Positions 47 through 18,306 of a stretch of 64,000 nucleotides of DNA are shown one piece after another; position 1 is the stretch's first letter, and every line of letters starts with the position of its first letter. The stretch is from positions 3,818-67,817 of the forward strand of contig CAZSOI010000040.1 in assembly GCA_964608115.1 (NCBI GenBank), read 5' to 3'. Source of the DNA: an uncultured Burkholderiaceae bacterium (GTDB taxonomy: Bacteria > Pseudomonadota > Gammaproteobacteria > Burkholderiales > Burkholderiaceae_F). The position numbers and the translations under genes are program-made. Below the pieces are notes generated by a model. The model saw only the letters and a program-made list of their open reading frames with translations, did no database searches and was not told the DNA's origin.

Positions 47-262
47 TTACAGTTTGATGAGCTTTCCTTGGACGGCCAAAGCCACCGCCTGAATGCGGGT
101 GACCGCTCCTAGCTTGGCGCGGGCCTCGTCGAGGGAAAAATCAACAGTGCGCTTGGTCAAACCCATTGCCCGTGCGATCTCATCGGAGGTCATTCCCCGC
201 GCCGACCGGGTCAGCATCTCTGTCTGGCGAGGACTTAGCACTGGCTGACGTGCTTTTCTCAT
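47..262 (-). CDS. Stand-alone LuxR/NarL-type helix-turn-helix protein (71 aa, no receiver domain)
   Basis: LSPRQTEML..SARGMTSDEIARAMGLTKRTVDF..DEARAKLG is a LuxR C-terminal HTH. It lies 17 bp downstream of, and co-oriented with, a REC-LuxR gene. Confidence 0.8.
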   Translation of the reverse strand: MRKARQPVLSPRQTEMLTRSARGMTSDEIARAMGLTKRTVDFSLDEARAKLGAVTRIQAVALAVQGKLIKL

Positions 263-279
263 GGCGTGTCCACTGCCAA

Positions 280-885
280 CTATGGCTCAATGAGTCTTCG
301 CGCGGCTGCCTTGACCACTGCCTCCACGCGAGTGACGGCACCCAGTTTTCCGCGCGCCGAATCCAAGTGGGCGTCGACGGTCGCCTTGGTCAAGCCAATT
401 ATCTGTGCGATCTCCGACGAAGTCTTGCCGCGCGCCGACCAAGTAAGTGCCTCGATCTCACGGTCGGTAAGCTTGACCGGTGGTGGCGCTTCCCCCATGT
501 GCTCGACTCGCGCCAAGCGAGCGTTGATGATCTCAGCGAGCAATTCGAAGTCGATCGGTTTCGTCACATAGTCATCGGCGCCCAGCGTTCTGCCCTTGAG
601 TTCGTGTTCGCGATCCGTCAACGCGGTGAGAAAAATAAACGGCATGTTGGCAAAGCGCGGGGCAATGGCCGTCAACGCCTCGAGCACCTGAAAGCCCGAC
701 ATCGTCGGCAAGTTTATGTCGCACAAGACCAGATCCGGTGGTTCCTTGAGCAACGTCGCCATCGCCTCACGGCCATCGTAGGCAAGACGCACGGCAAAGC
801 CCCGCACAATCAGATCCTCGGCCACCAAGGCCGCGACCTCGCGATCGTCCTCGATGCATAAAATGGTCTTCTGAGGATTTGACAT
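280..885 (-). CDS. Two-component response regulator, REC + LuxR HTH
   Basis: ILCIEDD, DLVLCDINLP (phosphoacceptor Asp), GADDYVTKP, then a LuxR HTH. Start trimmed from the ORF call at 972 to the ATG at 885 (MSNPQKTILCIEDD), by comparison with the paralogue at 15305-15910. Confidence 0.9.
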   Translation of the reverse strand: MSNPQKTILCIEDDREVAALVAEDLIVRGFAVRLAYDGREAMATLLKEPPDLVLCDINLPTMSGFQVLEALTAIAPRFANMPFIFLTALTDREHELKGRTLGADDYVTKPIDFELLAEIINARLARVEHMGEAPPPVKLTDREIEALTWSARGKTSSEIAQIIGLTKATVDAHLDSARGKLGAVTRVEAVVKAAARRLIEP

Positions 886-1000
886 GTAGATGAACCGGGA
901 CGTGTCGCGCGGCTGACTGCCGCGGCCTTCTCGCAACGCATGAAGGGCCCATGCTCCTGCATGCTTGGGCAAATTATCAGCAACGTTGCAGCGTCACGCC

Positions 1001-1031
1001 ACTGTGATTAGACATAGGTATTTGTCACAGT
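1001..1031. promoter_or_regulatory. Inverted repeat ACTGTGA-N17-TCACAGT upstream of the response regulator
   Basis: Read directly: ACTGTGA at 1001-1007, TCACAGT at 1025-1031. Same heptamer as the palindrome at 10335-10374. Function is inferred. Confidence 0.4.
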
Positions 1032-1799
1032 AGCCTTGGCGTTTGCCCCGCCGGATCTGCGCGAACGCATCGGCCAGCGTCAAGGCTAAGGCACCTTTCG
1101 CAGTTTGCCTCGGCACTGCCATCTGTGTGCGCCGCATCACGCATGGCGTTTGACATACCCTTTGACGCACGGCCCACGCAACGTTCGCGATAACGTCAAC
1201 GGCCACCTTGGCGCGAGGCCGCGGACCGCTTAGCCGAGGCGATTTGATCGGAAGCTTGCGCTATAGGCATCGGGTCTGCATCCAACGCTGCGCCGAAAAC
1301 CTGGACATTGCAAAGCGTTCAGATCAATGGACTCGCCGCACGCAACAAAACCTTCCTCTGCCCATCCGGGCACATTGTGGCTATCGACGCCCCGCGCGCA
1401 GCGGTATCGATAAGCGATCCGTCGTGTTCGTTTCACCTGAACGGCGACAAGCGCACAGGCCTGCTTTGTTTGGAAACTTGGTCGCGCGCAAGCTCCTGAG
1501 ATTGCATGGGAATCGGAGATCACGGAAGGCGCGACGCGGTATTAGCGAATTTCGACACCCTCGCTACCCTTTTTTGCACAATCTTTAGACTGCCTCGCCT
1601 AACATGTGAAATGAGGGCGGGTGTTCGAGCGCTTGGCAAGGCGCCCGAGGGTGGCGCAGCGCTGCGATTTTTCTCTTTTGTGAGCCCATCTTGCGCTGAA
1701 ATCCGAGTTATGCGCGCGCCCGCTTGACTGCGGGCCCGGCAGCACGGTCTGCGAAAATGGGGATGTTGCGATTTGTTTGTGCCGTCCGCGGTGGCCACA

Positions 1800-1958
1800 A
1801 TGACGACTGTCCTGGTACTTTTGTTATTGATCGCTTCCTTTCTGCTCTTGGGCGGATTGGTTCGCTTTTCCGAAAACATCATCGAACCCGTCGCGCCCGT
1901 CGATAGGATTTACACGACGGTGGGGGCAAAAGGCTCAACAGGCCCGCGCGATTGCTAA
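1800..1958 (+). CDS. Small single-TM membrane protein preceding kdpF
   Basis: MTTVLVLLLLIASFLLLGGLVRFSENII: hydrophobic helix then a short polar tail, directly upstream of kdpF. Small membrane ORFs are often found at this position in kdp operons. Start at ATG 1800 preferred over TTG 1773. Confidence 0.55.
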   Translation: MTTVLVLLLLIASFLLLGGLVRFSENIIEPVAPVDRIYTTVGAKGSTGPRDC

Positions 1959-2014
1959 GGAGTCCCTGCCAAAACGTCCTTGGCGGTTGGTAATTTCACA
2001 ATGGCGGCAGCGTT

Positions 2015-2098
2015 ATGGCTTCCTATGTACTTTTCACGATTGTGGTTGGACTGGTCTTTTATCTGTTTTACGCCGTGATCCACCCCGACAAGTTCTAG
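2015..2098 (+). CDS. kdpF: K+-transporting ATPase subunit F (27 aa, absent from ORF track)
   Basis: Manual translation MASYVLFTIVVGLVFYLFYAVIHPDKF*: the C-terminal YLFYAVIHPDKF matches the KdpF pattern (YL.YAL..PE+F). It ends 9 bp before kdpA. Confidence 0.9.
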   Translation: MASYVLFTIVVGLVFYLFYAVIHPDKF

Positions 2099-2107
2099 TG
2101 CTTTTGC

Positions 2108-3841
2108 ATGTCGCCGCAGTCGTGGTTGCAAATTGCCTTAACGCTGCTCATTGCCCTTGTGATCAGCGTTCCGGTGGGCAGATACCTTTCCCAGGTCGTG
2201 ACGGAGCGCAGAGGCTTAGCCGACCGGCTGTTCGATCCCGTCGATAATCTCCTGTACCGTGTAATCGGGCAGCGGATCTGTCGCTCTCCGATGAATTGGA
2301 AGGCGTACACGGTCCACATGCTGATGACGAATCTGGTGATGGCGGTGCTCATCTACCTGATCCTCGTTTTCCAGCACCGTTTGCCGCTAAATCCGCTGCA
2401 CTTCGCCGGTGTCGATCCGCTTCTGGCGTTTAATACAGCGGTTAGTTTTATCACCAACACGGACTGGCAGGCCTATGGGGGCGAAGTCACACTCTCAAAC
2501 TTTAGCCAGATGGCGGCGATTACCTTTCCGATGTTCACTTCCGCCACCACCGGCTTCGTGGTCGCGATGGCCTTTATTCGCGCATTTACGGTCAAGAACA
2601 GTGGCACCGATATCGGCAATTTCTATCGGGACCTCATCCGCTTTACGACCCGCGTACTTGTGCCGGCGGCATTCGTGCTGGCCATCGTGCTGATCGAGCA
2701 GGGCGAGCCACAAACACTTGCCGCTCGAGTCAGTGCGCACACGATCGAGGGATCCGAACAGCTAATTGCGTTGGGGCCCGTTGCTTCGCTCGAAACGATT
2801 AAGCATCTGGGCACTAACGGCGGGGGTTTTTTCAACGCCAACGCCTCGCATCCCTTTGAAAACCCGACGCCGCTAACCAATCTGGTGCTCACGCTGCTGA
2901 TGATTGTTTTGCCCGCTTCGATCGTCGTTTGCTTCGGCCAGATGATCGGCAACCGCCGGCAGGGATGGGTGCTCTACGGGGTAATGGGCACCATGCTGCT
3001 GATGGTTGTGCCTGTTGCGATCACCTCCGAACAGACCGGTACACCGGCACTGCAGACGGCCGGTGTCCAGATGAAAGCATCGCAAACGCAGTCCGGCGGC
3101 AACATGGAAGGCAAGGAGGTGCGCTTTGGCATCGCCCAGAGCGCTTTGTTTGCAACGGTCACGACCTCCTTCACCACGGGGAGCGTGAACTCGATGCATG
3201 ACAGTTTCACGCCGCTTGGCTCGGTGCCCAGCTTTGTGGGCATGATGTTGCAATGTATTTACGGCGGCAAGGGCGTAGGCTTTCTCAACGCCCTTGTCTA
3301 CGGCATCATCGCTGTCTTCGTTGCCGGCTTGATGGTGGGGCGCACCCCCGAATTTCTTGGCAAGAAGATTGAAAAACCCGAGATCATCCTGGTCTCGCTG
3401 GCGCTGCTGATCCACCCGCTGGTGATCCTTGCGCCGACCGGCTGGTCCGTAATTGCACCGTACGGCTTGTCTTCGATGGCCAACGCTGGCGCCCATGGCT
3501 ACTCGGAAGTGCTGTACGCATTCTCTTCCTCGGCTGCAAACAATGGCTCGGCATTTGCGGGACTGAACGCGGACACTGCCTGGTACAACCTGATGACGGC
3601 GTTCGTCATTTTGATCGGCCGCTATCCGCCGATCATCTTCATGATGGCGGTGGCCGGCTCGGTGGCCGCCAAACCGACGCTAGCGCCTACGGCCGGTACC
3701 TTGCAAACCGATACGGGTTTGTTTGCCGCGTTTTGGTTGGGCGTGATCTTGGTCGTGGGAGCCTTGACGTTCTTGCCCGCGCTCGTCCTCGGCCCCCTGG
3801 CTGAGTACTTCGCCATGCAAGCACGCATGCTATTTGGATGA
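2108..3841 (+). CDS. kdpA: K+-transporting ATPase subunit A
   Basis: FITNTDWQAYGGE, GTNGGGFFNANASHPFENPT, GSVNSMHDS, SSAANNGSAFAG KdpA motifs; overlaps the kdpB start. Confidence 0.98.
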   Translation: MSPQSWLQIALTLLIALVISVPVGRYLSQVVTERRGLADRLFDPVDNLLYRVIGQRICRSPMNWKAYTVHMLMTNLVMAVLIYLILVFQHRLPLNPLHFAGVDPLLAFNTAVSFITNTDWQAYGGEVTLSNFSQMAAITFPMFTSATTGFVVAMAFIRAFTVKNSGTDIGNFYRDLIRFTTRVLVPAAFVLAIVLIEQGEPQTLAARVSAHTIEGSEQLIALGPVASLETIKHLGTNGGGFFNANASHPFENPTPLTNLVLTLLMIVLPASIVVCFGQMIGNRRQGWVLYGVMGTMLLMVVPVAITSEQTGTPALQTAGVQMKASQTQSGGNMEGKEVRFGIAQSALFATVTTSFTTGSVNSMHDSFTPLGSVPSFVGMMLQCIYGGKGVGFLNALVYGIIAVFVAGLMVGRTPEFLGKKIEKPEIILVSLALLIHPLVILAPTGWSVIAPYGLSSMANAGAHGYSEVLYAFSSSAANNGSAFAGLNADTAWYNLMTAFVILIGRYPPIIFMMAVAGSVAAKPTLAPTAGTLQTDTGLFAAFWLGVILVVGALTFLPALVLGPLAEYFAMQARMLFG

Positions 3842-5946
3842 AACCGCCCTCTGAGCCATCAACAAACGGCCAGACGTCACAGCGTAGAGGGGCCGAGCGG
3901 GGCTCGCGCAAACAGCGTCGGGCCGCCGCCTACGACAGCGCGTTGTTGCGCCAGGCCCTTTTTGATTCGCTCAAGAAGCTCGATCCCAGAACACAGATTC
4001 GCAACCCGGTCATGTTCGTCGTCTGGGTCGGCGCGATCGTCACCGCTTGTCTGACGATAAGTCCCGATCTTTTCGGTCCATCAAGCGCCACACGCACGTA
4101 CAACGGCACGGTGACATTCATCTTGCTGTTGACCGTCTGGTTTGCCAATTTTGCGGAATCCCTCGCCGAAGGTCGCGGTAGGGCGCAGGCGGCGTTTTTG
4201 CGGCGAACTAAGGTGGAACTTCGTGCAAAACGCGTGCGCGCAAACGGCAAGATCGAAGATGTGCCGGCCATAGCGCTACGAAAGGGAGACTTGGTCCGAG
4301 TGGAGAAGACCCAAATCATTCCCTGCGACGGCGAGGTTGTTGACGGTGCCGCGTTCGTCGACGAGTCGGCAATCACGGGTGAATCCGCCCCGGTACTGCG
4401 CGAGGCCGGCACGGACACATTCTCCTCGGTGACAACTGGCACGACGGTGATTTCCGACTGGCTGCTCGTTTGCGTAAGCGCCGATCCCGGCCAAAGCTTC
4501 TTGGATCGCATGATCCATCTCGTGGAGAGCGCGAAACGGCAAAAGACACCCAACGAGATTGCGCTCACGGTATTGCTATCCATCCTGACCTTGATCTTCG
4601 TGATTGTCGTGGCGGCGATGGCGCCCGTTGCGTCCTATCTGAACGCGCAGATCAACGTTGCCGATCTGATCGCTCTGGTCGTTGCCTTGATCCCAACAAC
4701 CATTGGCGCACTGCTTTCCGCAATTGGCATCGCTGGAATTGACCGCATGGTGCGCTTTAACGTGCTTGCTATGTCAGGCAAAGCCGTCGAGGCCGCGGGC
4801 GACGCACAACTGCTCATACTCGATAAGACCGGCACGATCACAATGGGGAACCGGCAGGCTAGCCAGTTCATCCCCATGCCCGGTTGTTCGCCGCAACAAC
4901 TGGCGCAGGCAGCGCTGCTCGCGTCTTATTTTGATACCACTCCCGAGGGGCGCTCCGTGGTCTCCTTTGCCAAACGACAAGGTGCGCCGTTGGATCCTTT
5001 GTTGGAGCGGGCGCGCGGCCTCGAATTCTCGGCCAAGTCCCGGATGAGCGGCGTAGACATGCCCGATGGCCGCGTGATTCGCAAGGGAGCCGCTGGTGCC
5101 ATCGTTGAACACACGCGCAACGCTTTCAGCGCCCAAGAACCCAGGGAGCTTGCCGCGGCAGTTGATATGGTGGCCAAAGAGGGAGCAACACCGCTTGCAG
5201 TTTGCGTCGATGGCGAAATACTGGGCGTTATCGCCCTGTCCGACGTCTTAAAGCCAGCGATCCGCGAACGCACCGCGCAGTTACGCACGATGGGTATTGG
5301 CACGGTCATGGTCACGGGCGATAACCCCGTTACGGCCGCAGCCATCGCCGCGCAGGCCGGAGTCGACCGCTTCATCGCGGAGGCCAGGCCCGAAGAAAAA
5401 CTCGATCTCATTCGTCGCGAACAGTCCCAAGGACGTCTTGTTGCGATGACCGGCGACGGAACCAACGATGCTCCTGAGCTCGCGCAGGCCGATGTCGGTC
5501 TGGCCATGCACTCGGGCACGGCGGCCGCCAAGGAAGCGGCCAATTTGATCGATCTGGACTCCGATCCCACAAAGCTGCTCGATGTCGTGAAAATCGGCAA
5601 ACAGATGCTGATCACACGTGGCGCGCTGACGACTTTTTCCATCGCCAATGACGTCGCGAAGTACTTCGCGATCCTCCCCGGAATGTTCATCGTGGCTCTG
5701 CCAGGTCTTGCCGCGCTAAACGTCATGAATCTGGCCACTCCTCAGAGTTCCATCTTGTCGGCGTTGATCTTCAATGCCCTCATCATTCCTGCACTAATCC
5801 CGCTGGCCCTGCGCGGGATCCGTTTCACACCAAAAACCGCCGAGGACATGTTTCGTCGCAATCTTCTGGTCTACGGCGTCGGCGGCCTGATCGCGCCTTT
5901 TATCGGCATCAAGCTCATCGACCTGGCCATTTCTCCATTGCTATGA
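3838..5946 (+). CDS. kdpB: K+-transporting P-type ATPase subunit B
   Basis: TGES, IPTTIG, DKTGT phosphorylation site, TGDN, GDGTND, ANDVAKYF. Confidence 0.98.
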   Translation: MKPPSEPSTNGQTSQRRGAERGSRKQRRAAAYDSALLRQALFDSLKKLDPRTQIRNPVMFVVWVGAIVTACLTISPDLFGPSSATRTYNGTVTFILLLTVWFANFAESLAEGRGRAQAAFLRRTKVELRAKRVRANGKIEDVPAIALRKGDLVRVEKTQIIPCDGEVVDGAAFVDESAITGESAPVLREAGTDTFSSVTTGTTVISDWLLVCVSADPGQSFLDRMIHLVESAKRQKTPNEIALTVLLSILTLIFVIVVAAMAPVASYLNAQINVADLIALVVALIPTTIGALLSAIGIAGIDRMVRFNVLAMSGKAVEAAGDAQLLILDKTGTITMGNRQASQFIPMPGCSPQQLAQAALLASYFDTTPEGRSVVSFAKRQGAPLDPLLERARGLEFSAKSRMSGVDMPDGRVIRKGAAGAIVEHTRNAFSAQEPRELAAAVDMVAKEGATPLAVCVDGEILGVIALSDVLKPAIRERTAQLRTMGIGTVMVTGDNPVTAAAIAAQAGVDRFIAEARPEEKLDLIRREQSQGRLVAMTGDGTNDAPELAQADVGLAMHSGTAAAKEAANLIDLDSDPTKLLDVVKIGKQMLITRGALTTFSIANDVAKYFAILPGMFIVALPGLAALNVMNLATPQSSILSALIFNALIIPALIPLALRGIRFTPKTAEDMFRRNLLVYGVGGLIAPFIGIKLIDLAISPLL

Positions 5947-6623
5947 GGCACCTTACTTCTGAGGCAATGATGAGCGCGGTGCGTGCGGCACTGGCGACCT
6001 TGATTCTTTGCGGAGTGCTCTACCCGCTGGCGTTGACTGCGATCGGTCAGTTGATTTTCCCGTTTGAGGCCAACGGCAGCTTGCTGCGCGCGCCCGAGGG
6101 CACCGTTTTGGGATCAAGACTCATCGGGCAGCAATGGGACGGACCGCAGTGGTTTCACGGCCGCCCATCGGCGACGATCACGACGGACCCCAGCGATCCA
6201 AGCAAAGCGGTGCCGGCGCCTTATAACGCGGCCAATTCCGGCGGCTCGAACCTAGGGCCGACCAATAAAAACCTGATGCAGCGTCTTTTAGCGGATCGAG
6301 CGTCGCTCGAATCGGCGCAGCCGGAGCTTTTGGGAAAAAATCTCCCCGCTGACATGTTGACCACCTCCGCTTCCGGATTGGATCCGGATATCAGTCCCGA
6401 AAACGCTTTGTTGCAGCTCGCTCGCGTGGCTCGTGCGCGCGATGCGGAACCTGCGCGCCTGCAGGCACTCGTGCAGCGGTACACGACCACACGCGTCTTT
6501 GGGGTTTTTGGCGAACCGCGCGTGAACGTTTTGGAATTAAACCTTGCCCTGCAGCGCGCGTGCCCATTAAACGAAACTCACCCGGAGAACCGAGAGTGCG
6601 GATTTCATAGAGCAAACAACTAG
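5943..6623 (+). CDS. kdpC: K+-transporting ATPase subunit C
   Basis: YPLALT..GQ..FPFEANGS, FHGRPSA, SGGSNLGP, TTSASGLDPDIS, GEPRVNVLELNLAL; ATGA overlap with kdpB. Confidence 0.97.
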   Translation: MRHLTSEAMMSAVRAALATLILCGVLYPLALTAIGQLIFPFEANGSLLRAPEGTVLGSRLIGQQWDGPQWFHGRPSATITTDPSDPSKAVPAPYNAANSGGSNLGPTNKNLMQRLLADRASLESAQPELLGKNLPADMLTTSASGLDPDISPENALLQLARVARARDAEPARLQALVQRYTTTRVFGVFGEPRVNVLELNLALQRACPLNETHPENRECGFHRANN

Positions 6624-7319
6624 TCTTTGCCGCAGCCTTATCTACATGCGGCATCCCGAAGATGCGGAGCGCATCAAGCCCTCTCATAGCGCGCGCTAGA
6701 TACTTCGAAGTGCCGTTCAACCCAACGCAAACGCATTGCGGGATCGCGACTGGCTCCAAAGTTCCGAACTGCTGCACGTCCTTTTTTTCGCGGGTCCATA
6801 AGACCATCAAGCTCTGGCGCCTACCGGTAGACCTCTGGCGTGACGACACCCGCCTCGAGGTATGCGCCAACTGCCTGCGGTGTGCGACGCGAGCTCGTCG
6901 TCGCAGGGAAAGAAAATGCTTTCGGGCCCGCAGTGGGCGAAGTTCGCACCATTGAAGTGCAATTGGGCACTCCCGCCGAACATAGGCACCGCAAAAACTT
7001 CCGCGCCTCGACAAACGAAGCGCAGTGCAAAGCGAACGCTTCTGTCGCTAAGGCGCGCTGACTTGTCCAGCGCGAACGATGCGCCTGCGGCATTGGGCAA
7101 GTCATCCGCTATGCCCGCTTGCTGTGCGAAACGCAATGCGTAACGCACCAAGGATGCGCATGGGGCGCGCAGATGCTCATGCGCCAAGGCCCTGCCTGCA
7201 TTTCAGCGAGCAAGCATGCACGCGCTTTAAGTTGCGGTGCACGAGTCTTGGGTGGAAAATACTGACGCTCTTTCAAGGTTTAAGAGGCGAGCTTTATCAA
7301 TACAGAAAAAGGTGGACTT

Positions 7320-7643
7320 ATGAATCGCAATTTGAAGTTGGCAGCGCTCACTGCGGCGCTTTTTTTGGGCGTCGCGGGAACAGGAGTTGCCTTCGGCGCG
7401 GACATGGACAAAGACAAAGAAGCGCAAAAGACGAAGAACGTGGAGGCGGGCTATTGGGAAACGAAGGATCTGCTGCGCCTGATGGATAAGGACAAAAACG
7501 GGAAGGTCTCCAAAAAGGAATTTATGGAGTACATGGAGGCCGAATTCGACCGGCTGGACACCGACCACAATGGCGAGCTGGACGTAAGCGAGTTGTCGCA
7601 AATGAGGGTTAGTAAGCACACGGGTGGTTCAGGCAGCCGGTAG
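7320..7643 (+). CDS. Secreted/periplasmic two-EF-hand calcium-binding protein
   Basis: Sec signal (MNRNLKLAALTAALFLGVAGTGVAFG-A), then two canonical 12-residue EF loops, DKDKNGKVSKKE and DTDHNGELDVSE. GGA RBS-like sequence upstream. Confidence 0.85.
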   Translation: MNRNLKLAALTAALFLGVAGTGVAFGADMDKDKEAQKTKNVEAGYWETKDLLRLMDKDKNGKVSKKEFMEYMEAEFDRLDTDHNGELDVSELSQMRVSKHTGGSGSR

Positions 7644-8028
7644 GCGGCGAAGAAAAGACAGCACAGCGGCAAGCGGAGATCGGCTGCTGGTCGATGGAGC
7701 CTACAGGGTGGGGCTTCCCTACAGGCCTTTTGCGCGGCCAGCAAGCGATGATTGTCGTGCTGCCGAGGAGGGCGGGGAAGCAAATTGACGCGCCAGCGTA
7801 AAGCCCTTGACCTACGGCTGGGCGCGAGGTCAATCATTCTGGCCAACGCGCAGATGTCCGAGGGGTGCTAGGCGCTATTGCGTGCGCTTACGCAGGCATC
7901 TGCCACTTGCTACAAAACGCCCACGAGACTTCCCCGAGATAAGCGCGAAGCGGGGGCCCACAAAATCGTGCCTCGCGCCTCGCAGCCCCCGTAGTGCCCG
8001 CGCAACAGCTGCGGAAAGAGGCAAAGCG

Positions 8029-8367
8029 CTATAGCGCTCCTTTGCCTGTCTCCCCAGTGCGAATTCGCACGACCTGTTCTAGGTCGTAGACGAAAATCTT
8101 GCCATCACCGACCTTCCCGGTAACTGCAGAGTGTTGGATGGCATCAATTGCGCGTGGGGCGAGCTCGGCATCGACCGCCACTTCGAGCATCAGCTTGGGC
8201 AGAAAGTTCACCTCGTACTCCCCGCCGCGGTACATGTGCGCGTGTCCTTTTTGCCGGCCAAAGCCCTTGGATTCCGTAATCGTGACGCCCTGCACGCCGA
8301 CTGCAGCCAGCGCCTCTCGGACCGCGTCCAGCTTAAACGGCTTGATAATGGCAACTATGTATTTCAT
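8029..8367 (-). CDS. glnK: P-II family nitrogen regulatory protein (GlnK/GlnB type, 112 aa)
   Basis: MKYIVAIIKPFKL, KGFGRQKG, Tyr51 in YRGGEY, GKVGDGKIF, RIRTGE. True start is the ATG at 8367; the ORF-track extension to 8547 looks spurious. The glnK versus glnB assignment is not certain. Confidence 0.93.
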   Translation of the reverse strand: MKYIVAIIKPFKLDAVREALAAVGVQGVTITESKGFGRQKGHAHMYRGGEYEVNFLPKLMLEVAVDAELAPRAIDAIQHSAVTGKVGDGKIFVYDLEQVVRIRTGETGKGAL

Positions 8368-10242: not shown

Positions 10243-10334
10243 TAGCACCTTCAGATGTCCGTGGCCCCGATTCACGCGGGTCCATTAGCTTAACTACAGG
10301 CGTCGATTCTACGGCTCAGGACAGTGTGCACACC

Positions 10335-10374
10335 ACCGTGATAAATCACAGTGCGTACTGTGATTTATCACGGT
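10335..10374. promoter_or_regulatory. Perfect 40-bp palindrome (18-4-18) in the divergent OMF / MFP-RND promoter; each arm is itself a 7-4-7 dyad
   Basis: ACCGTGATAAATCACAGT-gcgt-ACTGTGATTTATCACGGT read directly; the arms are exact reverse complements. Operator function is inferred. Confidence 0.75.
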
Positions 10375-10429
10375 AGACAGTGTCCGGCCCCAACCGGGAA
10401 CATATACGTTCTTTATAAAGAGGCGGGTT

Positions 10430-11653
10430 ATGCGAATTGGACACAAGCTCGGTGGTGCAGCGAGCGCATTGGCCACGTTGGCCGTGGTGATGGGAATTGC
10501 TGGCTGCTCTGGCGGTGCCTCCAAAGATGCATCGGAGGGCGCCAAGGCTGAAGCCGCAAAGCCGGCAGAGGGCAAAGAGGCAGGAGCTCAAGGCGCCCAG
10601 GCCAGCGTGGACCTGAACGACACACAGGTCAAAACCATCCGCTTTGCCCCGGTCGGTGCTCGCACTTTTCCTCGGCAACGCATCGCCGTAGGCAATATCG
10701 ACTTTAACGAAGATCTCGCAGTGCAGGTTTATTCTCCGTACGCGGGCCGCATCATCCAAGCCTTCGCCCAGTTGGGCGATGAGATCGAGAAGGGCAAAGC
10801 GCTTTTCACGATCGATAGTCCGGACCTCGTGCAGGCCGAATCTACCTTAATTGCGGCTGCTGGCGTCTATGAGCTAACCAGCGCGGCCTTAACGCGCGCC
10901 AAAGGACTCTTTGAAACCCAAGGCATCGCCGAGAAGGACTTGCAGCAGGCGATCTCGGATCAGCAGAGCGCAGAAGGAGCACTCAAGGCGGCCCGCGATG
11001 CGGTGCGCGTTTTTGGTAAATCGGAGGCGCAAATCGACGAGATCGTCGCCAAGCGCAAAATCGATCCGGCGCTCGTTGTTCCCTGCCCGATCAGCGGCCG
11101 CGTCACGGCGCGCAACGCCCAGCCTGGTTTGTTCGTGCAACCGGGCAGTCCGCCCGCACCCTATGCCGTCGCCGACCTATCGACCATGTGGATGCTAGCC
11201 GACGTTACCGAAAGCGACATCCCCATGTTCCGTTTGGGACAGTCGGTGCGCGTGAAGGTGTTGGCTTTCCCCGACCGTGACTTCGAGGGAAAGGTGACCA
11301 ACATTGGTGCGACCGTCGATCCCACGACACGTACCGTCGTGGTGCGCTCGGAAATCCGCGATCCGAAACACGAACTGCGCCCGGGTATGTTTGCAACGTA
11401 CGTCATCAACGTCCAGGCTCCGGTAAAGGGTCTCGCCGTGCCGCTGGCGGGCATCGTGCGCGAGGGCGATGGCACGATGACCGCATGGGTCACCACGGAT
11501 GGACACCATTTCACTAGGCGCATCGTCAAAGTGGGCCTGCAGGAAGGCGGGTTCGACCAGATTCTCGAGGGCCTGCAGCCCGGCGAGCAGGTCGTTACCG
11601 ACGGAGCAGTATTTCTGAGCAACATGGTTGCCTCCGCCGGAACCGAAACCTAA
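10430..11653 (+). CDS. RND efflux periplasmic adaptor (MFP, CzcB/CusB-like family)
   Basis: Lipoprotein-like signal (GIAGC), VYSPYAGRI, DSPDLVQAE, CPISGRV, GATVDPTTRT, LRPGMF, GEQVVTDGA; directly upstream of the RND gene. Confidence 0.95.
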   Translation: MRIGHKLGGAASALATLAVVMGIAGCSGGASKDASEGAKAEAAKPAEGKEAGAQGAQASVDLNDTQVKTIRFAPVGARTFPRQRIAVGNIDFNEDLAVQVYSPYAGRIIQAFAQLGDEIEKGKALFTIDSPDLVQAESTLIAAAGVYELTSAALTRAKGLFETQGIAEKDLQQAISDQQSAEGALKAARDAVRVFGKSEAQIDEIVAKRKIDPALVVPCPISGRVTARNAQPGLFVQPGSPPAPYAVADLSTMWMLADVTESDIPMFRLGQSVRVKVLAFPDRDFEGKVTNIGATVDPTTRTVVVRSEIRDPKHELRPGMFATYVINVQAPVKGLAVPLAGIVREGDGTMTAWVTTDGHHFTRRIVKVGLQEGGFDQILEGLQPGEQVVTDGAVFLSNMVASAGTET

Positions 11654-11677
11654 GCCTCCCACGTCAAGGAAGTACCC

Positions 11678-14600
11678 GTGTTCAAAACTGTTCTTGCCTT
11701 TTGCTTGACGCGCCGGGCCGTCGTGATGATGGGCCTGCTGGTGCTGCTCGGTGCCGGGGCCATCGCTGTCAACAAGCTCAACATCGAGGCTTACCCCAAC
11801 CCTGCGCCGGTGATTTTAGAAATCACCGCGCAGGCTCCGGGCCTGTCCGCGGAGGAGATGGAGCGCTATTACACGACCCCCATGGAAATTGGGCTGTACT
11901 CGACGCCGGGAATTTCGAATATCCGCTCGACGTCCTTTTACGGTCTTTCCTTCGTGCGCGTCACCTTCAAATACGGCGTCGACTACTTTTTTGCGTACAC
12001 GCAGGCGGCGTTGAGCCTGCAGCAAAACGTCAACCTGCCCGGGAGTCAGGTTCCGCAAATCCAGCAATCGAGCCTCGTCGGCGAGGTCTACCGCTATCAG
12101 GTCGTCGGCCCCCAGCATTTTGGATTGACCAATCTGCGCACGGTGCAAGACTGGATCATTTTGCGCCGTCTGTCGACAATCCCCGGGGTAGTCGCGATCA
12201 ACAGCTGGGGCGGCACCACCAAGGAATTCGACGTCAAGATCGACCAAGGCAAATTGCAAGCCTATGGGCTCACGGTGCCGCAGATCATTACCGCCCTGGG
12301 CAACGCGAACATCAACGTCGGCGGACGTGAGATCGCAATTGGCCAGCAGTCCATCAACATCCGTGGGGTAGGACTGATCGACAGTGGTGGCAGCGACGAT
12401 CTGACCAAAGGCTACAAGGTCGAGGACATTGAAAACGTCGTCCTGACGCAAAACAACGGTGTGCCGGTGTTGGTGAAACATGTCGCGCAAGTCGACGTGG
12501 GATACGTGCCTCGGCTGGGCATCGCCGGGCGTGATCACGAGGACGACATTGCGGCGGCCATCGTCGTGATGGGCCGCACCCAGCACACCAACGAGATCGT
12601 TCCGCGCATTAAAGAGGTCGTGGAGAAGATGAACCACGACGGAAGCTTACCTCCGGGAGTGAAGATCGTCCCGTATTACGACCGCACTTCGCTGGTCGAC
12701 GTAACCACCCACACCGTATTTCACAATCTGGTTTTCGGGTGCCTGTTGGTGTTTCTGATCCAGTGGATCTTTCTGGGTGACCTGCGCAGCGCGATCATTG
12801 TTGGCGTCAACATTCCGTTTGCGCTGCTCTTTAGCATTATCTTGTTGGTGCTGCAGGGCGAGGACGCCAACTTGCTTTCGATCGGAGCCGTGGACTTTGG
12901 CATCATCGTCGATTCCGCGGTGATCTTGGTCGAGAACATCTTTCGCAACTTTCAGTCGAACAAGGACGTCCGGCGTCGATTGCTTGAGGACCTCGCAGAA
13001 GGCCAGTTGGGTAGTGATCCGACACATTTTCGGGACGTAAATCATCGCCGTACATGGAACAACCGCCTGCGGCTGATTCTGATCAGTGCCTTGCAAGTGG
13101 ATCGCGCCATATTGTTTTCGGTCGCAATTACGGTGGCCGCATTCGTACCCTTGTTCACCATGCAGGGCGTCGAGGGCCAGATCTTCGGTCCCATGGCCAG
13201 AACGTATGCCTATGCACTGACCGGTGCATTGATTGCCACTTTTACCGTCACACCGGTGCTGGCCTCCTTCGTTTTACCAGCGCATGTGGAGGAAGTCGAA
13301 ACCATCGTGGTGCGCGCGATTCGCTCGGTGTACACCCCGCTGCTTCGCTGGTCGCTGTCAAATCGGGGAGTCGTGGTCGGCGCCGGAGTGATCTTTCTCG
13401 TGCTAACCGGGCTGTTGATCGGGCGACTGGGTTCGGAATTTTTGCCGGCCCTTGAGGAAGGTAACTACTGGATACGGGCTTCCATGCCACCGACGATGTC
13501 GCTGGAAGCGGGCACTCGTGCGGCCGGCAAAATGCGCGAGATTCTAATAAGCCACCCGGAAATCCTGACCGTCGTCTCCCAGCACGGGCGTCCCGACAAC
13601 GGCAGCGACGCATCGCCCTTCTCCAATGTCGAGCTGTTTGCTCCCTTAAAGCCCTTTGACGAATGGCCCTCCGGTTTGACCAAGGACAAGCTCACGGAAC
13701 AATTGCAAAAGCAATTCAACGACGAGTTGCCCGGGGTGACCTTTAACTTCTCGCAGTACATTCAGGACAACGTCGAGGAAGCCATCTCGGGAGTCAAAGG
13801 CGCCAATTCGGTCAAGATCATCGGACCTAATCTCGTTGTACTCGAGCAGATTGCTGCGCAGGTGATGGAGCAGATGAGGGCCGTGCGCGGCGTGGAGGAC
13901 CTGGGGCTGTTTAACGTCCTTGGCCAGCCCAATCTGAACGTTAAGGTCGACCGAGCCAAAGCGGCGCGCTATGGCTTAAATAGCGGAGACGTCAACACGG
14001 TGATCCAGGCAGCGATGGGCGGCGTAACCGCCAGCACAGTGCTGGAAAACGAGCGTCAGTTCAACCTGGAGGTACGCTTTTTACCCAAGTACCGCGACAG
14101 CATCGAGAACGTAGGCAACATTCGGGTCGGCTATCAAACGGCTAGCGGCGCCACCGGGTATGTCCCTTTACGCGATGTAGCAAACATCAGCCTGGATACC
14201 GGTGCCTCCTACATCTATCACGAGGCAACCCAGCGGTTCATTCCGATCAAGTTCAGCGTGCGGGGGCGCGATTTGGGCGGCACGGTGGCCGAGGCGCAAA
14301 GTCGCATCGCGAAGAACGTACCCCTGCCCACCGGCTACCGCATCATCTGGGCCGGTGAGTTCGAGGACCTGCAACTAGCGCAAAAACGCCTTGAGGTCAT
14401 TGTGCCAATCAGCCTTGCGCTCATCCTCATGCTGCTGTACGCGCTGTTTAATTCGCTGCGCGACAGCCTGCTCGCGCTGTCCGGGATTCCTTTTGCCATT
14501 GGGGGCGGAGTGTTGGCGCTATACATTGCGGGACTGCCGTTCAGCATTTCGGGGGCAATTGGCTTTATTTCGCTGTTTGGTGTTTCGGTAATGAACGGGA

Positions 14601-14923
14601 TTTTGCTCATTACTTACTACCATCAGACGCGCTCGCACGGTCTTAGCAATATCGATGCGATGTTTCTTGCGGGAGAGCAGCGTATGCGGCCCATGCTCAT
14701 GACGGCACTCTCGGCCTGCATCGGTTTGTTGCCGGCCGCCCTGTCCCATGGCATTGGCAGCCAAGTGCAACGGCCCCTGGCTACTGTCGTCGTCGGCGGA
14801 TTGTTGCTCGGACCGATCATGCTCTTGGTCGTGGTGCCCGCCCTGCAGACGCTGTTCATGGGTCGGGAAGATCAGATGCCACCGGCAGCGCACGAGACTG
14901 CGCGCGGAATTGACGCCGAATGA
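11678..14923 (+). CDS. Heavy-metal-efflux type RND permease (CusA/CzcA family)
   Basis: 1081 aa; IEAYP, GAVDFGIIVDSAVILVEN proton relay, FLPALEEG, RMRPMLMTAL, GSQVQRPLATVVVGG. Confidence 0.95.
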   Translation: MFKTVLAFCLTRRAVVMMGLLVLLGAGAIAVNKLNIEAYPNPAPVILEITAQAPGLSAEEMERYYTTPMEIGLYSTPGISNIRSTSFYGLSFVRVTFKYGVDYFFAYTQAALSLQQNVNLPGSQVPQIQQSSLVGEVYRYQVVGPQHFGLTNLRTVQDWIILRRLSTIPGVVAINSWGGTTKEFDVKIDQGKLQAYGLTVPQIITALGNANINVGGREIAIGQQSINIRGVGLIDSGGSDDLTKGYKVEDIENVVLTQNNGVPVLVKHVAQVDVGYVPRLGIAGRDHEDDIAAAIVVMGRTQHTNEIVPRIKEVVEKMNHDGSLPPGVKIVPYYDRTSLVDVTTHTVFHNLVFGCLLVFLIQWIFLGDLRSAIIVGVNIPFALLFSIILLVLQGEDANLLSIGAVDFGIIVDSAVILVENIFRNFQSNKDVRRRLLEDLAEGQLGSDPTHFRDVNHRRTWNNRLRLILISALQVDRAILFSVAITVAAFVPLFTMQGVEGQIFGPMARTYAYALTGALIATFTVTPVLASFVLPAHVEEVETIVVRAIRSVYTPLLRWSLSNRGVVVGAGVIFLVLTGLLIGRLGSEFLPALEEGNYWIRASMPPTMSLEAGTRAAGKMREILISHPEILTVVSQHGRPDNGSDASPFSNVELFAPLKPFDEWPSGLTKDKLTEQLQKQFNDELPGVTFNFSQYIQDNVEEAISGVKGANSVKIIGPNLVVLEQIAAQVMEQMRAVRGVEDLGLFNVLGQPNLNVKVDRAKAARYGLNSGDVNTVIQAAMGGVTASTVLENERQFNLEVRFLPKYRDSIENVGNIRVGYQTASGATGYVPLRDVANISLDTGASYIYHEATQRFIPIKFSVRGRDLGGTVAEAQSRIAKNVPLPTGYRIIWAGEFEDLQLAQKRLEVIVPISLALILMLLYALFNSLRDSLLALSGIPFAIGGGVLALYIAGLPFSISGAIGFISLFGVSVMNGILLITYYHQTRSHGLSNIDAMFLAGEQRMRPMLMTALSACIGLLPAALSHGIGSQVQRPLATVVVGGLLLGPIMLLVVVPALQTLFMGREDQMPPAAHETARGIDAE

Positions 14924-15300
14924 GCGCGCGGGGAAACAAGGCCAATGGGGCAGCCGCCTTCGTGGCGCTGGTTGTCGTTGCGCTCACGGCGAAGGCTTGC
15001 CTTGCACAGCCGCTGCATCAACCGCTTGAATCCCGCCACGTCCTCACGCCGCATCCTTCGGCGGCGGTAATTGGCGGACCCGCACGGCCCACCGGTGCAA
15101 GGCCAGGCGAGGCGCGCTTTCCCGTTTCGCCAGCTGGTGCCGTGCCTGCTAAGGCACCGCTCGCACCAAGAGAATTTCCGCATGTAGCCGCAAAACAAGT
15201 GACTGCAAGCAGTAAACCCGCCCAATCGTTGCAACTACATAAACGGCAGGAACCAGCGTCCGGGCAAAATCACGCGGCGCCAGTGCACCACGCCAAATGA
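14920..15300 (+). CDS. Hypothetical exported Pro/Ala/His-rich protein
   Basis: ATGA overlap with the RND stop, signal-like N-terminus (AAAFVALVVVALTAKACLA-Q), low-complexity body ending HAAPVHHAK. Confidence 0.5.
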   Translation: MSARGNKANGAAAFVALVVVALTAKACLAQPLHQPLESRHVLTPHPSAAVIGGPARPTGARPGEARFPVSPAGAVPAKAPLAPREFPHVAAKQVTASSKPAQSLQLHKRQEPASGQNHAAPVHHAK

Positions 15301-15304
15301 GCTC

Positions 15305-15910
15305 TTACGGTTCGATCAACCCGCCCGTCGCCGCCTTGACCGCTGCTTGTATTCGAGACGACACACCGAGTTTGCTGCGGGCATTATCGATATGAAAGTC
15401 GACGGTGCGTTTGCTCAGACCCAGTATCGATGCAATCTCGTCGGAGGTCTTCCCGCGCGCCGACCATGTCAGAGTCTCGATTTCGCGCTGGCTCAAGTCG
15501 ACTTGTTTCGACCAAATCTCCAGGCGCGCCACACGCGCCAGGCGCGCGCTGATGATGCTGGCCAGAAGGTCGAAGTCGATCGGCTTGGTGACATAGTCAT
15601 CGGCGCCCAGCCTGCGCCCTTTGAGCTCGCTGTCGCGGTCGGTGAGCGCCGTTAGGAACACAAACGGCATGTTGCGGAAGTTCGGGGCAATCGCAGTTAG
15701 CGCCTCTAATACCTCGAATCCGGACATTCCGGGCAGGTTAATGTCGCACAGTACAAGGTCCGGGCGAATGCGCAAGATCGCGGCAAAACCGTCGTTGCCG
15801 TCGTGCGCCAAGCTCACGTCGTAACCGCGCTCTTCTAGGTCCTCGCGGATCAGCGCAGCGCTTTCTTTATCGTCCTCAATGCAGAGGATTTTCTTACGCT
15901 CTTCTACCAT
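15305..15910 (-). CDS. Two-component response regulator, REC + LuxR HTH (paralogue of 280-885)
   Basis: ILCIEDD, DLVLCDINLPGMSG, GADDYVTKPIDF, WSARGKTSDEIA..LGLSKRTVDFH. Confidence 0.93.
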   Translation of the reverse strand: MVEERKKILCIEDDKESAALIREDLEERGYDVSLAHDGNDGFAAILRIRPDLVLCDINLPGMSGFEVLEALTAIAPNFRNMPFVFLTALTDRDSELKGRRLGADDYVTKPIDFDLLASIISARLARVARLEIWSKQVDLSQREIETLTWSARGKTSDEIASILGLSKRTVDFHIDNARSKLGVSSRIQAAVKAATGGLIEP

Positions 15911-16109
15911 GGCAAGCCAAAACCAACATTTGCTCGGGCGCAGCGCACGCCCAGCACCCCCGGTCTGCGCGCAAGCGACAAGCGCCCGGGTGCCGTATTC
16001 TATTGCCCCCGGCCAGGCGAAGGAACTCGCTGGTCAAAAGGGTTCGGTCGCCGCGACATGGGAAGTCGAGCACGAACACCGGCCGCTCGGCGGAAAGCCA
16101 ACGAAAGTC

Positions 16110-17699
16110 GTGACCCAACGTCATTCCATCCGAATTCGCTTGTCCCTCGCGTTCATCCTCTTGGGGCTGCTGGTTCTCGTGTTGGGCCTGTTTAGCGTCT
16201 GGTGGCTAAGCGACGTCAACGCCGCGTCGGCGGAAATCCGCGATCGTTGGTTGCAAAGCTCCCACTTGCTGGGCGACTTGAACAATTTCACATCCGACTA
16301 TCGCGCCGCCGAGGCCAGCCATTTGCTGGCAACCAGTAAAGTCGAAATGGCGGCAAACGATAAGGAACTTTTGTCCTTGCAAAAGGCGATCAACCAGGCA
16401 TGGCAAAGCTATGAGAAAGTTCCCCATGACGGGGAGGAAACGCGCCTGTGGAAACAGTTCACGGCGGACTGGAACCATTACCGCCAAGTCTCCGACCGGG
16501 TTCTCGCCTTATCGGCGCAGCGCCCCAACGCCCTTGCGATCACGCTCTATGAAGGTGACTCGAAGATGGCGTACGGCGCGGCCAGCGATACGCTAGGCGG
16601 GCTTACTGAGCTGACCGTTACGGGTGCGCGGGCCGCAAGCAATCGTGCGGACCAGGTCTACCGGCATGCGCGCATACTGATTTTTGGCGCTATCGCTCTT
16701 GCCGGAGTGATGATCCTGATCGTCATGAGCCACATCACGCGCTCCGTTTCCCGACCCATACTCGAACTTGCCAGTCGAATGCACACGCTTGCTAAAAGCG
16801 ACACCAATATCGAGATCTCCGGCACTGAACGCAGTGACGAGATCGGGGAAATGGCCCGCGCCGTTGTAGTGTTCCGCAATAACGCGATCGAACTTGCCCA
16901 CAGCCAACGGGGATTGGAGCAACAGGCCTCGATGCTCGCCGAAAAACTCGAACACGAACAGCGGCTGACGACTTTGCAGCGCAATTTTGTGTCGATGGCC
17001 TCGCACGAATTTCGCACCCCCCTTACCATCATCGACGGGCAAGCGCAACGCTTGATCAAAATGGTGGAGCGAATATCACCTGTCGAACTTGGCGAACGTG
17101 CCGGAAAAATTCGAACGGCCGTTCAGCGCCTGACGAATCTTCTGGAGTCCTTGCTCAACTCCTCCCGCCTGATGGAGGCCGACCAGAAGCTGTATTTTCA
17201 TCCGACAGAATTTAACCCCGCAGCACTGCTCCACGAGGTATGCCAGACGCACCGCGAGATCGCAGCGGACGCTTGGGTCATAGAGCACATCAACAATCTG
17301 CCCTCATCCATGCTAGGTGACCCTAAGCTGCTGTACCAGGCCTTTAGCAATCTGGTCTCCAATGCCATCAAATATTCCGCGGTCGGCAAACCGATCCAGC
17401 TCGACGCAGTGTTTGATAAGGATCGGCTGGTAGTTACCGTGCGTGACGAGGGCATCGGGATTCCTCAAGAGGATTTGCCAAGAATGTTCGAACGATACTA
17501 TCGGGGCAGCAACGTTCATGGCATCGTCGGAACCGGAATCGGCCTGTACCTGGTCAAGACCGTTGTCGCCTTGCACGGCGGCGATATCACGGTCGAGAGC
17601 CGCGAGGGCGAGGGATCGAAGTTCACCTTGTGGCTACCGCTTCGTCCTACAGTCGCGTCCACCGAAAGCGCCTTGGCACAGGACGCAGTCAACGCATAA
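16110..17699 (+). CDS. Sensor histidine kinase: TM - four-helix-bundle ligand domain - TM - HAMP - HisKA - HATPase
   Basis: Two TM segments flank a helical periplasmic domain; HAMP ERSDEIGEMARA; H-box SHEFRTPLT; NLVSNAIKYS, DEGIGI, GTGIGL. Start moved to GTG 16110 because the ORF-track start overlaps the divergent regulator. Confidence 0.92.
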   Translation: MTQRHSIRIRLSLAFILLGLLVLVLGLFSVWWLSDVNAASAEIRDRWLQSSHLLGDLNNFTSDYRAAEASHLLATSKVEMAANDKELLSLQKAINQAWQSYEKVPHDGEETRLWKQFTADWNHYRQVSDRVLALSAQRPNALAITLYEGDSKMAYGAASDTLGGLTELTVTGARAASNRADQVYRHARILIFGAIALAGVMILIVMSHITRSVSRPILELASRMHTLAKSDTNIEISGTERSDEIGEMARAVVVFRNNAIELAHSQRGLEQQASMLAEKLEHEQRLTTLQRNFVSMASHEFRTPLTIIDGQAQRLIKMVERISPVELGERAGKIRTAVQRLTNLLESLLNSSRLMEADQKLYFHPTEFNPAALLHEVCQTHREIAADAWVIEHINNLPSSMLGDPKLLYQAFSNLVSNAIKYSAVGKPIQLDAVFDKDRLVVTVRDEGIGIPQEDLPRMFERYYRGSNVHGIVGTGIGLYLVKTVVALHGGDITVESREGEGSKFTLWLPLRPTVASTESALAQDAVNA

Positions 17700-17775
17700 G
17701 CCGACGCCAATCCGGGTGCGCAGCGCGCCAGGGTGATTTCTGGCTCTTATGTGGTGCGCGCCGGGCGGCTAAAAA

Positions 17776-18306
17776 TCAGGGTACTCGAATAAGCAGTCCC
17801 ACGGTAATACCAACGGACTGCTCCCCGGTCTTCGAGACGACGCTCCAATCGGGTTGGACGTACCAACCGAGGTCTTTGTGGGGCCAGAACATGAAATCCA
17901 AATCGACTTCGGCACCATTGGCTGTGCCGCGATCTGGTCCACTGAAGGTTTTTGCGTATTTCGGACCCGCACCGATCATAAATTCCGAGCTCTCTGAAAG
18001 TTCAAACGGCTTCTTAAATATTAGCGAGCCGGAGAGCTCCGTGTGCCCGGATGTGCCAAGCAATGCCCCGGCAAGCTCCATCTCGAGCCAATGTTCAATG
18101 AGCGACACCTCGAAGCCCGCTGCGGCGCCTGCGTTCACCTCGCTGCCGCCGCGCACAACCCATTCACTGGTCGGGCCGATTTCCACCACTGCGCCTTCCC
18201 CCTTTTGCTTTTCCTCGGAATCTTGTGCGTGCGCCGCGACGGGAACAAGAGTGGCCAAAGCGCAAACGGCGGCCAAGTGCACCAAGCGTTGCATCATGAT
18301 GTACAT
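17776..18306 (-). CDS. Hypothetical exported protein, probable small outer-membrane beta-barrel
   Basis: Signal peptide ending AAHA-Q, then alternating hydrophobic/polar Gly- and aromatic-rich strands (WLEMELAG, FKKPFEL, EFMIGAGP, LDFMFWP, GWYVQP). Start at 18306 or 18297. Confidence 0.65.
   Translation of the reverse strand: MYIMMQRLVHLAAVCALATLVPVAAHAQDSEEKQKGEGAVVEIGPTSEWVVRGGSEVNAGAAAGFEVSLIEHWLEMELAGALLGTSGHTELSGSLIFKKPFELSESSEFMIGAGPKYAKTFSGPDRGTANGAEVDLDFMFWPHKDLGWYVQPDWSVVSKTGEQSVGITVGLLIRVP

Follow-up and report, generated by a model that had tools for sequence, protein, structure and literature searches.

A putative Zni-type cation-efflux determinant and its probable P-II and EF-hand companions in a peat Burkholderiaceae genome

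What brings a potassium pump, a metal-type efflux pump, a P-II protein and a secreted EF-hand protein together on 18 kb of DNA from a peat bacterium? The question is raised by positions 47-18306 of the window, as the whole 64,000-nucleotide stretch analysed here is called, which comes from a peat metagenome-assembled genome (MAG) publicly labelled Burkholderiaceae (genome G000). The initial annotation had proposed one cation-balance module under local regulators, with the EF-hand protein acting on the pump as CusF does on CusCBA. The explanation that we favour, and regard as probable on balance, is that a Zni-type efflux determinant acquired P-II and secreted EF-hand companions, and that kdpFABC (Kdp2 below) is a neighbour in one sublineage. 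The co-occurrence of the core genes expected by the initial annotation was confirmed; neither the single regulon nor the CusF-like role was supported.

Pfam and NCBIfam profiles were employed for the domain calls and, together with the translations, they recovered every gene of the initial list at or near its place. The core and its companions, including an outer-membrane factor (OMF), a membrane fusion protein (MFP), the resistance-nodulation-division (RND) protein and a response regulator (RR2) with a receiver (REC) domain, are as follows.

7144-7275, plus strand: elements upstream of the EF-hand gene, CGCACCAAGnnnGCGCA and a promoter-like TTGCGG-N17-GAAAAT (alignment of five congeners)
7320-7643, plus strand: Sec-exported two-EF-hand protein, 107 aa (Pfam EF-hand_6/1/5/7)
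8029-8367, minus strand: pump-linked P-II, 112 aa (Pfam P-II, PF00543, 102 bits)
about 8430-8450, minus strand: element AAGTACCATATTTG, about 75 nt 5' of the P-II start, kept in all five congener loci
8674-10275, minus strand: OMF, NodT type (TIGR01845, 394 bits)
10335-10374, unstranded: 40-bp palindrome in the OMF-MFP spacer, candidate ZniR-type operator (two GTGATwwATCAC dyads)
10430-11653, plus strand: MFP, CzcB/CusB-like adaptor (Pfam HlyD_D23, 172 bits; TIGR01730, 149 bits)
11678-14923, plus strand: RND, HME3a-like and ZniA/ZneA-like (TIGR00914, 830 bits)
14920-15300, plus strand: exported His/Pro-rich open reading frame (ORF), 126 aa, its start overlapping the RND stop
15305-15910, minus strand: RR2, REC-LuxR response regulator, ZniR-like (Pfam)
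16110-17699, plus strand (ORF opens at 15879): ZniS-like sensor kinase with 4HB_MCP, HAMP, HisKA and HATPase domains (Pfam)
17776-18306, minus strand: exported 176-aa protein, candidate small outer-membrane beta-barrel (signal peptide; features)

Start analysis put the likely kinase start at GTG 16110; the frame that opens at 15879 overlaps the start of RR2.

The identity of the pump was approached through its profile score, its motifs and its nearest relatives. The RND protein scores 830.2 bits against a TIGR00914 cut-off of 701.45, which places it among the CusA/CzcA heavy-metal-efflux (HME) RND proteins, and the closest solved structure is ZneA at 645 bits, with 462 bits for CusA. Its fourth transmembrane helix (TM4) reads DFGiivDSAvilVEN (DFGx3DSAx3VEN), keeps the D/D/E proton relay and conforms to the HME3a signature D-F-G-x3-D-(G/S)-(A/S)-x3-(V/M)-E-N. 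The TM4 class table in the supplement of PMC7060636 gives DSS for ZniA, DGA for ZneA and AVGx3DAA for CusA. At the positions of the ZneA proximal site the protein has E/D/E/D/E, carboxylates throughout and in agreement with the pattern E, D, E, D, D/E. ZneA D602, E610, D654 and D658 correspond in the alignment to the D and E of DASPFSNVE and to the D and E of DNVEE, and the W of CusA corresponds to the E of GEVYRY.

The nearest homologue in a cultured organism, 67% identical, lies on the chromid of Cupriavidus metallidurans CH34. In that locus (L121) a LuxR-type regulator (67% identity) is divergent from a four-helix-bundle (4HB) kinase (44%), and an OMF gene is divergent from MFP-RND; the published layout is zniAB divergent from zniC and zniS divergent from zniR (PMC11647585, PMC2864759), with zniA and zniB rising in a metal mix (PMC11647585). 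The window has the same Zni-type layout of a divergent OMF/MFP-RND and a divergent LuxR-type regulator/4HB kinase, and its likeness to zniABCSR extends from the parts and the divergent layouts to TM4 (DFGx3DS(A/S)x3VEN), the all-carboxylate proximal site and a related dyad between OMF and MFP. In CH34, zni adjoins zneSRBAC, whose ZneA is the structure PDB 4k0e. The two systems differ in where the regulator pair stands relative to the pump, and the CH34 zni locus is without P-II, EF-hand protein, small exported ORF, barrel gene and Kdp. Judged from these sequence comparisons, the core appears to be a Zni-type (HME3a) tripartite RND cation-efflux determinant with its own ZniS/ZniR-like two-component system. 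The view that no characterised system has this composition can be retained for the full set; it does not hold for the pump with its two-component system, which look Zni-type, nor for the linkage of P-II with czc-type pumps, which has been published.

Are the companions inherited with this core? Among 13 genomes of the genus, which include G000, G005, G006, G012 and G013, an orthologue of the EF-hand protein (75-94% identity) is present in G006, G012, G013 and the window genome, and an RND orthologue of at least 91% identity is present in exactly the same four of the 13. All four carry EF-hand, P-II, OMF, MFP and RND genes in one order, followed by RR2; the kinase and barrel genes come after RR2 in the window, G012 and G013, and the G006 contig stops within RR2. 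A clade of 75%-identical RND paralogues in other congeners has a plain MFP-RND-OMF arrangement with the accessory genes absent nearby. Beyond the genus, the same set was found again in another gene order in Nevskia and in metagenome contigs. Contig L027 reads EF-hand, kinase, regulator, OMF, MFP, RND, P-II, and the gammaproteobacterium Nevskia (L064) reads kinase, regulator, P-II, RND, MFP, OMF, EF-hand, with an 84%-identical RND. The conserved unit consists of EF-hand, P-II, OMF divergent from MFP-RND-small ORF, and REC-LuxR regulator divergent from 4HB kinase; pump, kinase, regulator, P-II and EF-hand genes are co-inherited. None of the organisms that carry the module has been cultured.

A further congener, G005, has an 84%-identical RND orthologue (C4, L116, 55-3167) that is split in two frames at about 2412, with RR2 and kinase downstream. 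Either decay of this copy or a fault in the assembly may explain the split.

To see which genes share the regulation of the pump, the 5' part of the block has to be considered as well. It contains a helix-turn-helix (HTH) protein, a second response regulator (RR1) and the potassium pump.

47-262, minus strand: LuxR/GerE HTH protein without receiver, 71 aa (Pfam GerE, 1.9e-12)
280-885, minus strand (ORF to 972; likely start ATG 885): RR1, REC-LuxR response regulator (Pfam Response_reg and GerE)
998-1034, unstranded: operator-like dyad ACTGTGA-N17-TCACAGT, 5' of RR1, kept in L010 and L016
about 2015-2098 (approximate), plus strand: kdpF, 27 aa (translation of 1881-2120)
2108-3841, plus strand: KdpA (Pfam KdpA, 742 bits)
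3838-5946, plus strand: KdpB (Pfam E1-E2 ATPase)
5943-6623, plus strand: KdpC (Pfam KdpC, 227 bits)

The spacer between OMF and MFP holds a perfect 40-bp palindrome of two GTGATwwATCAC dyads, which is kept in the orthologous spacers and in Nevskia; the zniC-zniB spacer of CH34 has the dyad with one mismatch. Related dyads with the same outer half-sites occur in the spacer of a paralogous pump (pump 2) and 113-149 bp 5' of RR1. The pump-type operator was thus located only at both pump promoters and 5' of RR1, and a search at kdpF, the EF-hand gene and the P-II start did not find it. The elements upstream of the EF-hand gene are kept across five congeners, two of them with a different upstream gene, and the P-II element AAGTACCATATTTG differs from these elements and from the pump operator and fits no known class of binding site. 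Because the operators stand at the pump promoters and RR1 and none at kdpF, EF-hand gene or P-II, RR1 and RR2 are the apparent regulators of the pumps. The palindrome is, by its sequence, a candidate ZniR-type operator and a candidate RR2 target. A scan of 1-19500 for riboswitches and other Rfam RNAs gave nothing but a microRNA match below threshold that falls on the palindrome, and a consensus promoter/terminator scan gave no more sites than shuffled sequence.

Pump 2, with OMF2 divergent from MFP2-RND2 (about 66-68% identical), is found just outside the window on the upstream side; its pieces were located on C549 (L022, 1-1719) and C341 (L120) of G000 and on L013 (1-1629, upstream of the window). 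A P-II gene stands directly behind OMF2, and the related operator is in its spacer. The LuxR-only HTH gene and RR1 are kept together in G006 and contig L016. The initial annotation had taken RR1 and RR2 as paralogous regulators that bound the block: they are indeed paralogous (68-70% identity), but the bracket dissolves, as RR1 and the LuxR-only HTH sit downstream of pump 2 and would belong with that pump rather than with one bracketed regulon. In one sublineage the accessory neighbourhood contains, besides the determinant, this paralogous pump and a second Kdp pump. The idea of one co-regulated block was not sustained on two further counts, as kdpFABC is missing beside the module in two of the four congeners (G012 and G013), and the ZniR-type operator is absent at kdpF, the EF-hand gene and P-II, of which the latter two have elements of their own.

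In the case of the P-II protein, Tyr51 and the B-loop are retained, and the T-loop is a genus-specific variant, GHAHMYRGGEY. It scores below the NCBIfam equivalog cut-offs (158.4 against 181 for NF007946 and 148.3 against 202 for NF008111), so that an assignment as GlnK or GlnB does not follow. Two further P-II genes of the genome share 66-68% identity with it, and one of these at least is pump-linked. The gene stands behind OMF in the window and on C549, and behind RND in L027 and L064. P-II proteins linked with czc-type pumps have been described under the name "PII-NG", with function given as unknown (PMC7726332, citing Sant'Anna et al. 2009). PII-NG, including Geobacter GSU2134-2137, resembles the present case in that a P-II domain protein is encoded in or next to an HME-RND operon. 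The likeness rests on gene linkage, not on clade placement, and holds for both paralogous pumps here, and the present P-II is near-canonical when set against PII-NG. An insertion of about 28 aa on the cytoplasmic side after TM4 of the RND protein was considered as a P-II-specific dock and rejected, because paralogues without a nearby P-II share it.

The EF-hand protein has two 12-residue loops, DKDKNGKVSKKE and DTDHNGELDVSE, with ligands at positions 1, 3, 5, 9 and 12 and Gly at 6; Pfam EF-hand_1/5/6/7 score over cut-off, as expected of Ca2+-binding EF hands. When 24 homologues are aligned, 21 columns are invariant, and a Met/Phe-rich core lies between the loops. In the AlphaFold2 (AF2) model the core of the EF-hand pair reaches a predicted local distance difference test (pLDDT) of 76-88 and is followed by a short last helix and a disordered tail; a fold search with this model returned significant matches only to generic EF-hand pieces. 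Scanning representative genomes, one per species, gave at least 288 relatives, nearly all in peat or acid-soil MAGs, from Acidobacteriota, Methylocella, Nevskia, Steroidobacteraceae and the genus of the window. Outside the genus an order-wide search yielded no more than weak matches, and no homologues were found on PLSDB plasmids.

The neighbourhoods of this family were counted at the best 80 of the 288 loci, which are phylogenetically non-independent, by clustering all neighbouring ORFs without a preset list. A BBP2 porin gene lies within 1 kb of the EF-hand gene in 46 of the 80. Within 10 kb, any pump gene occurs in 31, an OmpR-type regulator in 27, a DUF4118 (KdpD-like) kinase in 22, kdpA/B/C in 13 and P-II in 5 loci, the last in Proteobacteria only. 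The kdp neighbours come in at least six distinct arrangements, and a rough calculation puts the chance of kdp this close to a random gene at roughly 1%; since the loci are not independent, this excess is a strong lead rather than a test. The repeated finding beside kdp in Acidobacteriota makes the link of the family to cation transport real at the family level, and this recurrent association with cation-transport genes in acid-soil bacteria is the new element of the present analysis. In some Acidobacteriota the EF-hand gene is directly 5' of MFP-RND or between BBP2 and OMF, and the family is also found with kdp and without a pump. Within the genus, the presence of BBP2 does not follow that of the EF-hand protein.

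A recurrent Acidobacteriota operon (L025 and the L033-L054 type; L025 5648-16991) runs DUF4118 kinase, OmpR regulator, BBP2, EF-hand, OMF, MFP and RND, with a KDPG/KHG-type aldolase gene as the last of this metal-pump operon.

Three known proteins invite comparison with the EF-hand protein. CusF of CusCBA is likewise a small periplasmic protein encoded next to an HME-RND pump, but homology is excluded because the present protein has the EF-hand fold with oxygen ligands; in addition, its family also occurs without pumps, and an interface with the MFP was not predicted (0.00). The CusF-like chaperone role is not supported, the tightest neighbour of the family being the BBP2 porin and not the pump, with further members beside kdp in the absence of a pump. 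EfhP (PA4107) of Pseudomonas aeruginosa is, by its description, also a small protein with two canonical EF loops (PMC9132961, PMC11559002), and the abstracts of these papers report no pump, porin or kdp context; the present family differs in its confinement to acid-soil taxa and in its own invariant core. Among PDB sequences the best match, a weak one, was to lanmodulin (LanM; E 4e-11), which is a secreted EF-hand protein as well. Membership of that family was rejected, as NCBIfam LanM gives 26.7 bits against a cut-off of 135, and the present protein has two loops instead of four, with K and T instead of Pro at position 2.

Interface predictions were also made for the mature EF-hand protein, paired once with the MFP and once with the sensor dimer of the kinase. 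Both scored 0.00, a value that by the tool's own statement does not count against binding. In a peat RNA library, whose contigs carry no strand information and may include DNA carry-over, a near-identical contig (0-2 differences) covers the EF-hand gene (7284-8083) at depth 11.4. Contigs at depth 2-4 cover P-II, the OMF 5' end, the RND 3' end, RR2, the barrel gene and the kdpF leader (1793-2110). The depth of the EF-hand contig is 3-4 times that of the other block genes, and beyond the stop codon the contig continues for about 440 nt, entering the convergent P-II gene at its 3' end.

How does the potassium pump fit into this picture? KdpA, KdpB, KdpC and KdpF are encoded in one operon, as in KdpFABC, and KdpB carries the canonical P-type motifs DKTGT, TGES, TGD and GDGTND. 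The operon is a second, divergent copy (Kdp2), its KdpA being 38-48% identical to the housekeeping KdpA, which together with KdpD was found in every congener examined; in G000 the housekeeping kdpD-RR-kdpABC locus is on C47. Kdp2 occurs only in G000 and G006, and so does a second KdpD (KdpD2). The canonical arrangement of kdpDE adjoining kdpFABC is not seen, since the window is without KdpD and the two kinases are on C47 (KdpD1) and C408 (KdpD2). The description of this Kdp as an orphan is therefore correct locally and incorrect for the genome, which has two KdpD genes elsewhere. Next to the module, kdpFABC is found only in G000, G006 and two metagenome contigs. It is absent there in G012 and G013, and in G012 unrelated housekeeping genes lie upstream.

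KdpD2 belongs to a unit of BBP2 porin, GlnK, Amt, KdpD2 and two OmpR-type regulators, which within the genus is seen only with Kdp2 (G006:C73, L111, 1-7700; G000:C70 and C408, L114 and L109; L112 1300-11700). The unit joins ammonium- and potassium-sensing genes. Separately, Acidobacteriota were found to have full-length KdpA paralogues (573 aa, Pfam KdpA about 690 bits) without KdpB or KdpC (L086 14431-17856, L096 2952-6038, L104 1417-4487, L081 7062-8786 and 18340-19827, L106 1949-3679). In L086, L096 and L104 the next gene encodes a DUF2254 membrane protein; all these loci have an EF-hand gene near, to which L096 adds a gene for an outer-membrane barrel. It is unusual for KdpA to stand alone.

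The mechanism that would follow from the favoured explanation can be outlined. The kinase would sense a divalent 'hard' cation in the periplasm, Zn2+-like or perhaps Mn2+, Ca2+ or Al3+; RR2 would then bind the 40-bp operator, and the pump would clear the periplasm of the cation in exchange for inflowing protons. The determinant would have recruited two accessories in a small group of Proteobacteria from acid peat. One is the cytoplasmic P-II encoded behind OMF or RND, which most likely ties pump activity or expression to the ATP/ADP/2-oxoglutarate status. The other is the secreted two-EF-hand protein with its own promoter, most likely a periplasmic buffer or sensor of Ca2+ or other cations, which would serve cation traffic in the envelope generally and not as a pump-specific chaperone. 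The kdpFABC operon would be an accessory second K+ pump that joined in one sublineage and is probably run by KdpD2 and its OmpR-type regulators encoded elsewhere. A bolder extension, to which we give a rather low probability, makes the two-EF-hand family the periplasmic Ca2+-dependent partner of BBP2 porins, HME-RND pumps, Kdp and solo KdpA, in a cation-homeostasis set of acid peat and soil, spread over several phyla and so far undescribed, in whose proteobacterial version a P-II trimer would couple RND directly to the energy and nitrogen status of the cell, much as GlnK gates AmtB.

Several observations weigh against the favoured explanation. The CH34 papers list the function of zni itself as unknown (PMC11647585, PMC2864759), and the carboxylate sites of the RND protein, as read from the alignment, cannot separate Zn2+ from other hard cations, which leaves the substrate assignment putative. 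The regulatory tie of EF-hand protein and P-II to the pump is unproven because the pump-type operator is absent at both, and the interface predictions (0.00) lend no support to a binding of the EF-hand protein to MFP or kinase sensor. The RNA-library contigs are unstranded and may derive in part from DNA carry-over. In contig L018 the P-II/EF-hand pair stands alone with the pump absent nearby. Kdp, here regarded as a neighbour, has a wider connection to the family, whose members in Acidobacteriota repeatedly have kdp genes next to them (13 of 80 loci), and on contig L112 the BBP2-GlnK-Amt-KdpD unit directly abuts a module of OMF-RND-MFP, P-II and EF-hand-BBP2; given these 13 loci and this junction, the Kdp link may exceed chance.

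The same observations can be read in other ways. That the block is an accessory island of independent units (pump 2, Kdp2, EF-hand, P-II, and pump 1 with its two-component system), joined only by a common history and common selection in acid peat, would suit the three differing sets of conserved upstream elements, the gene content that varies between congeners and the lack of the whole set in most of the genus. Against it, EF-hand, P-II, pump, kinase and regulator are found together again in other orders and orientations in Beta- and Gammaproteobacteria; P-II stands behind OMF in both paralogous pumps, and its linkage with czc pumps is recurrent according to PMC7726332. We consider this island unlikely. 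One integrated cation-balance system under the local kinase and regulators, in which the EF-hand protein hands metal to the pump in the manner of CusF, is quite unlikely in our judgement. The block including kdp is kept in L016, L017 and G006 (whose contig ends within RR2), the EF-hand gene is beside kdp in 13 and beside pump genes in 31 of the 80 loci, and in Acidobacteriota it can directly precede MFP-RND or stand between BBP2 and OMF. These points are met by the absence of Kdp beside the module in G012 and G013, by the lack of the pump-type operator at kdp, EF-hand gene and P-II, and by the neighbourhoods of the family, where the BBP2 porin is the commonest (46 of 80 within 1 kb) and kdp occurs without a pump. 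The EF-hand/MFP interface score is 0.00, with the qualification of the tool given above, and the His-rich ORF coupled to the RND gene is a more CusF-like candidate.

A third alternative places P-II, Kdp, KdpD-type kinases, Amt and BBP2 at the centre of a K+/NH4+ economy, with RND and EF-hand protein in the service of that balance. The BBP2-GlnK-Amt-KdpD2-RR-RR unit is confined to Kdp2 genomes and abuts the EF-hand/P-II/pump module on L112, 22 of the 80 loci have a KdpD-like DUF4118 kinase alongside the EF-hand gene, and in Kuenenia a BBP2 porin is induced by ammonium limitation (PMC7438415). The RND protein, however, has a divalent-type TM4 and a ZneA-like carboxylate site and lacks the HME3b motif, which is the one predicted for monovalent cations. 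It is most closely related to the zni and zne pumps, and the module persists in G012 and G013, where Kdp2 and KdpD2 are both missing; we hold such an economy to be very improbable.

The linkage of P-II with czc pumps has been known since 2009 and lacks a mechanism. The present locus, its duplicate in the same genome and the shuffled copies in other classes make a compact conserved set for asking if P-II controls an RND pump, and if the P-II trimer does couple to RND, PII-NG would gain a mechanism. The EF-hand family is a second lead, with its near-invariant core, its good representation in the peat RNA library and its non-random porin, pump and potassium-uptake neighbours. Provided that its members do sense or buffer Ca2+ or another hard cation in the periplasm, the family would represent a part of the envelope that is specific to habitats of low pH, poor in cations or metal-mobilising. 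Should both leads fail, the locus would be an ordinary metal-efflux determinant with passengers.

Two small exported products of the block remain to be described. The His/Pro-rich ORF matches no family in Pfam or NCBIfam and evolves fast, with 61% identity in G006 against 96% for RND. In the case of the 176-aa protein, orthologues in G012 and G013 have 50-64% identity, and language-model features, together with the models of neighbouring clusters, resemble OMP_b-brl barrels; by this modelling it is probably a small outer-membrane beta-barrel, to be taken as a lead only.

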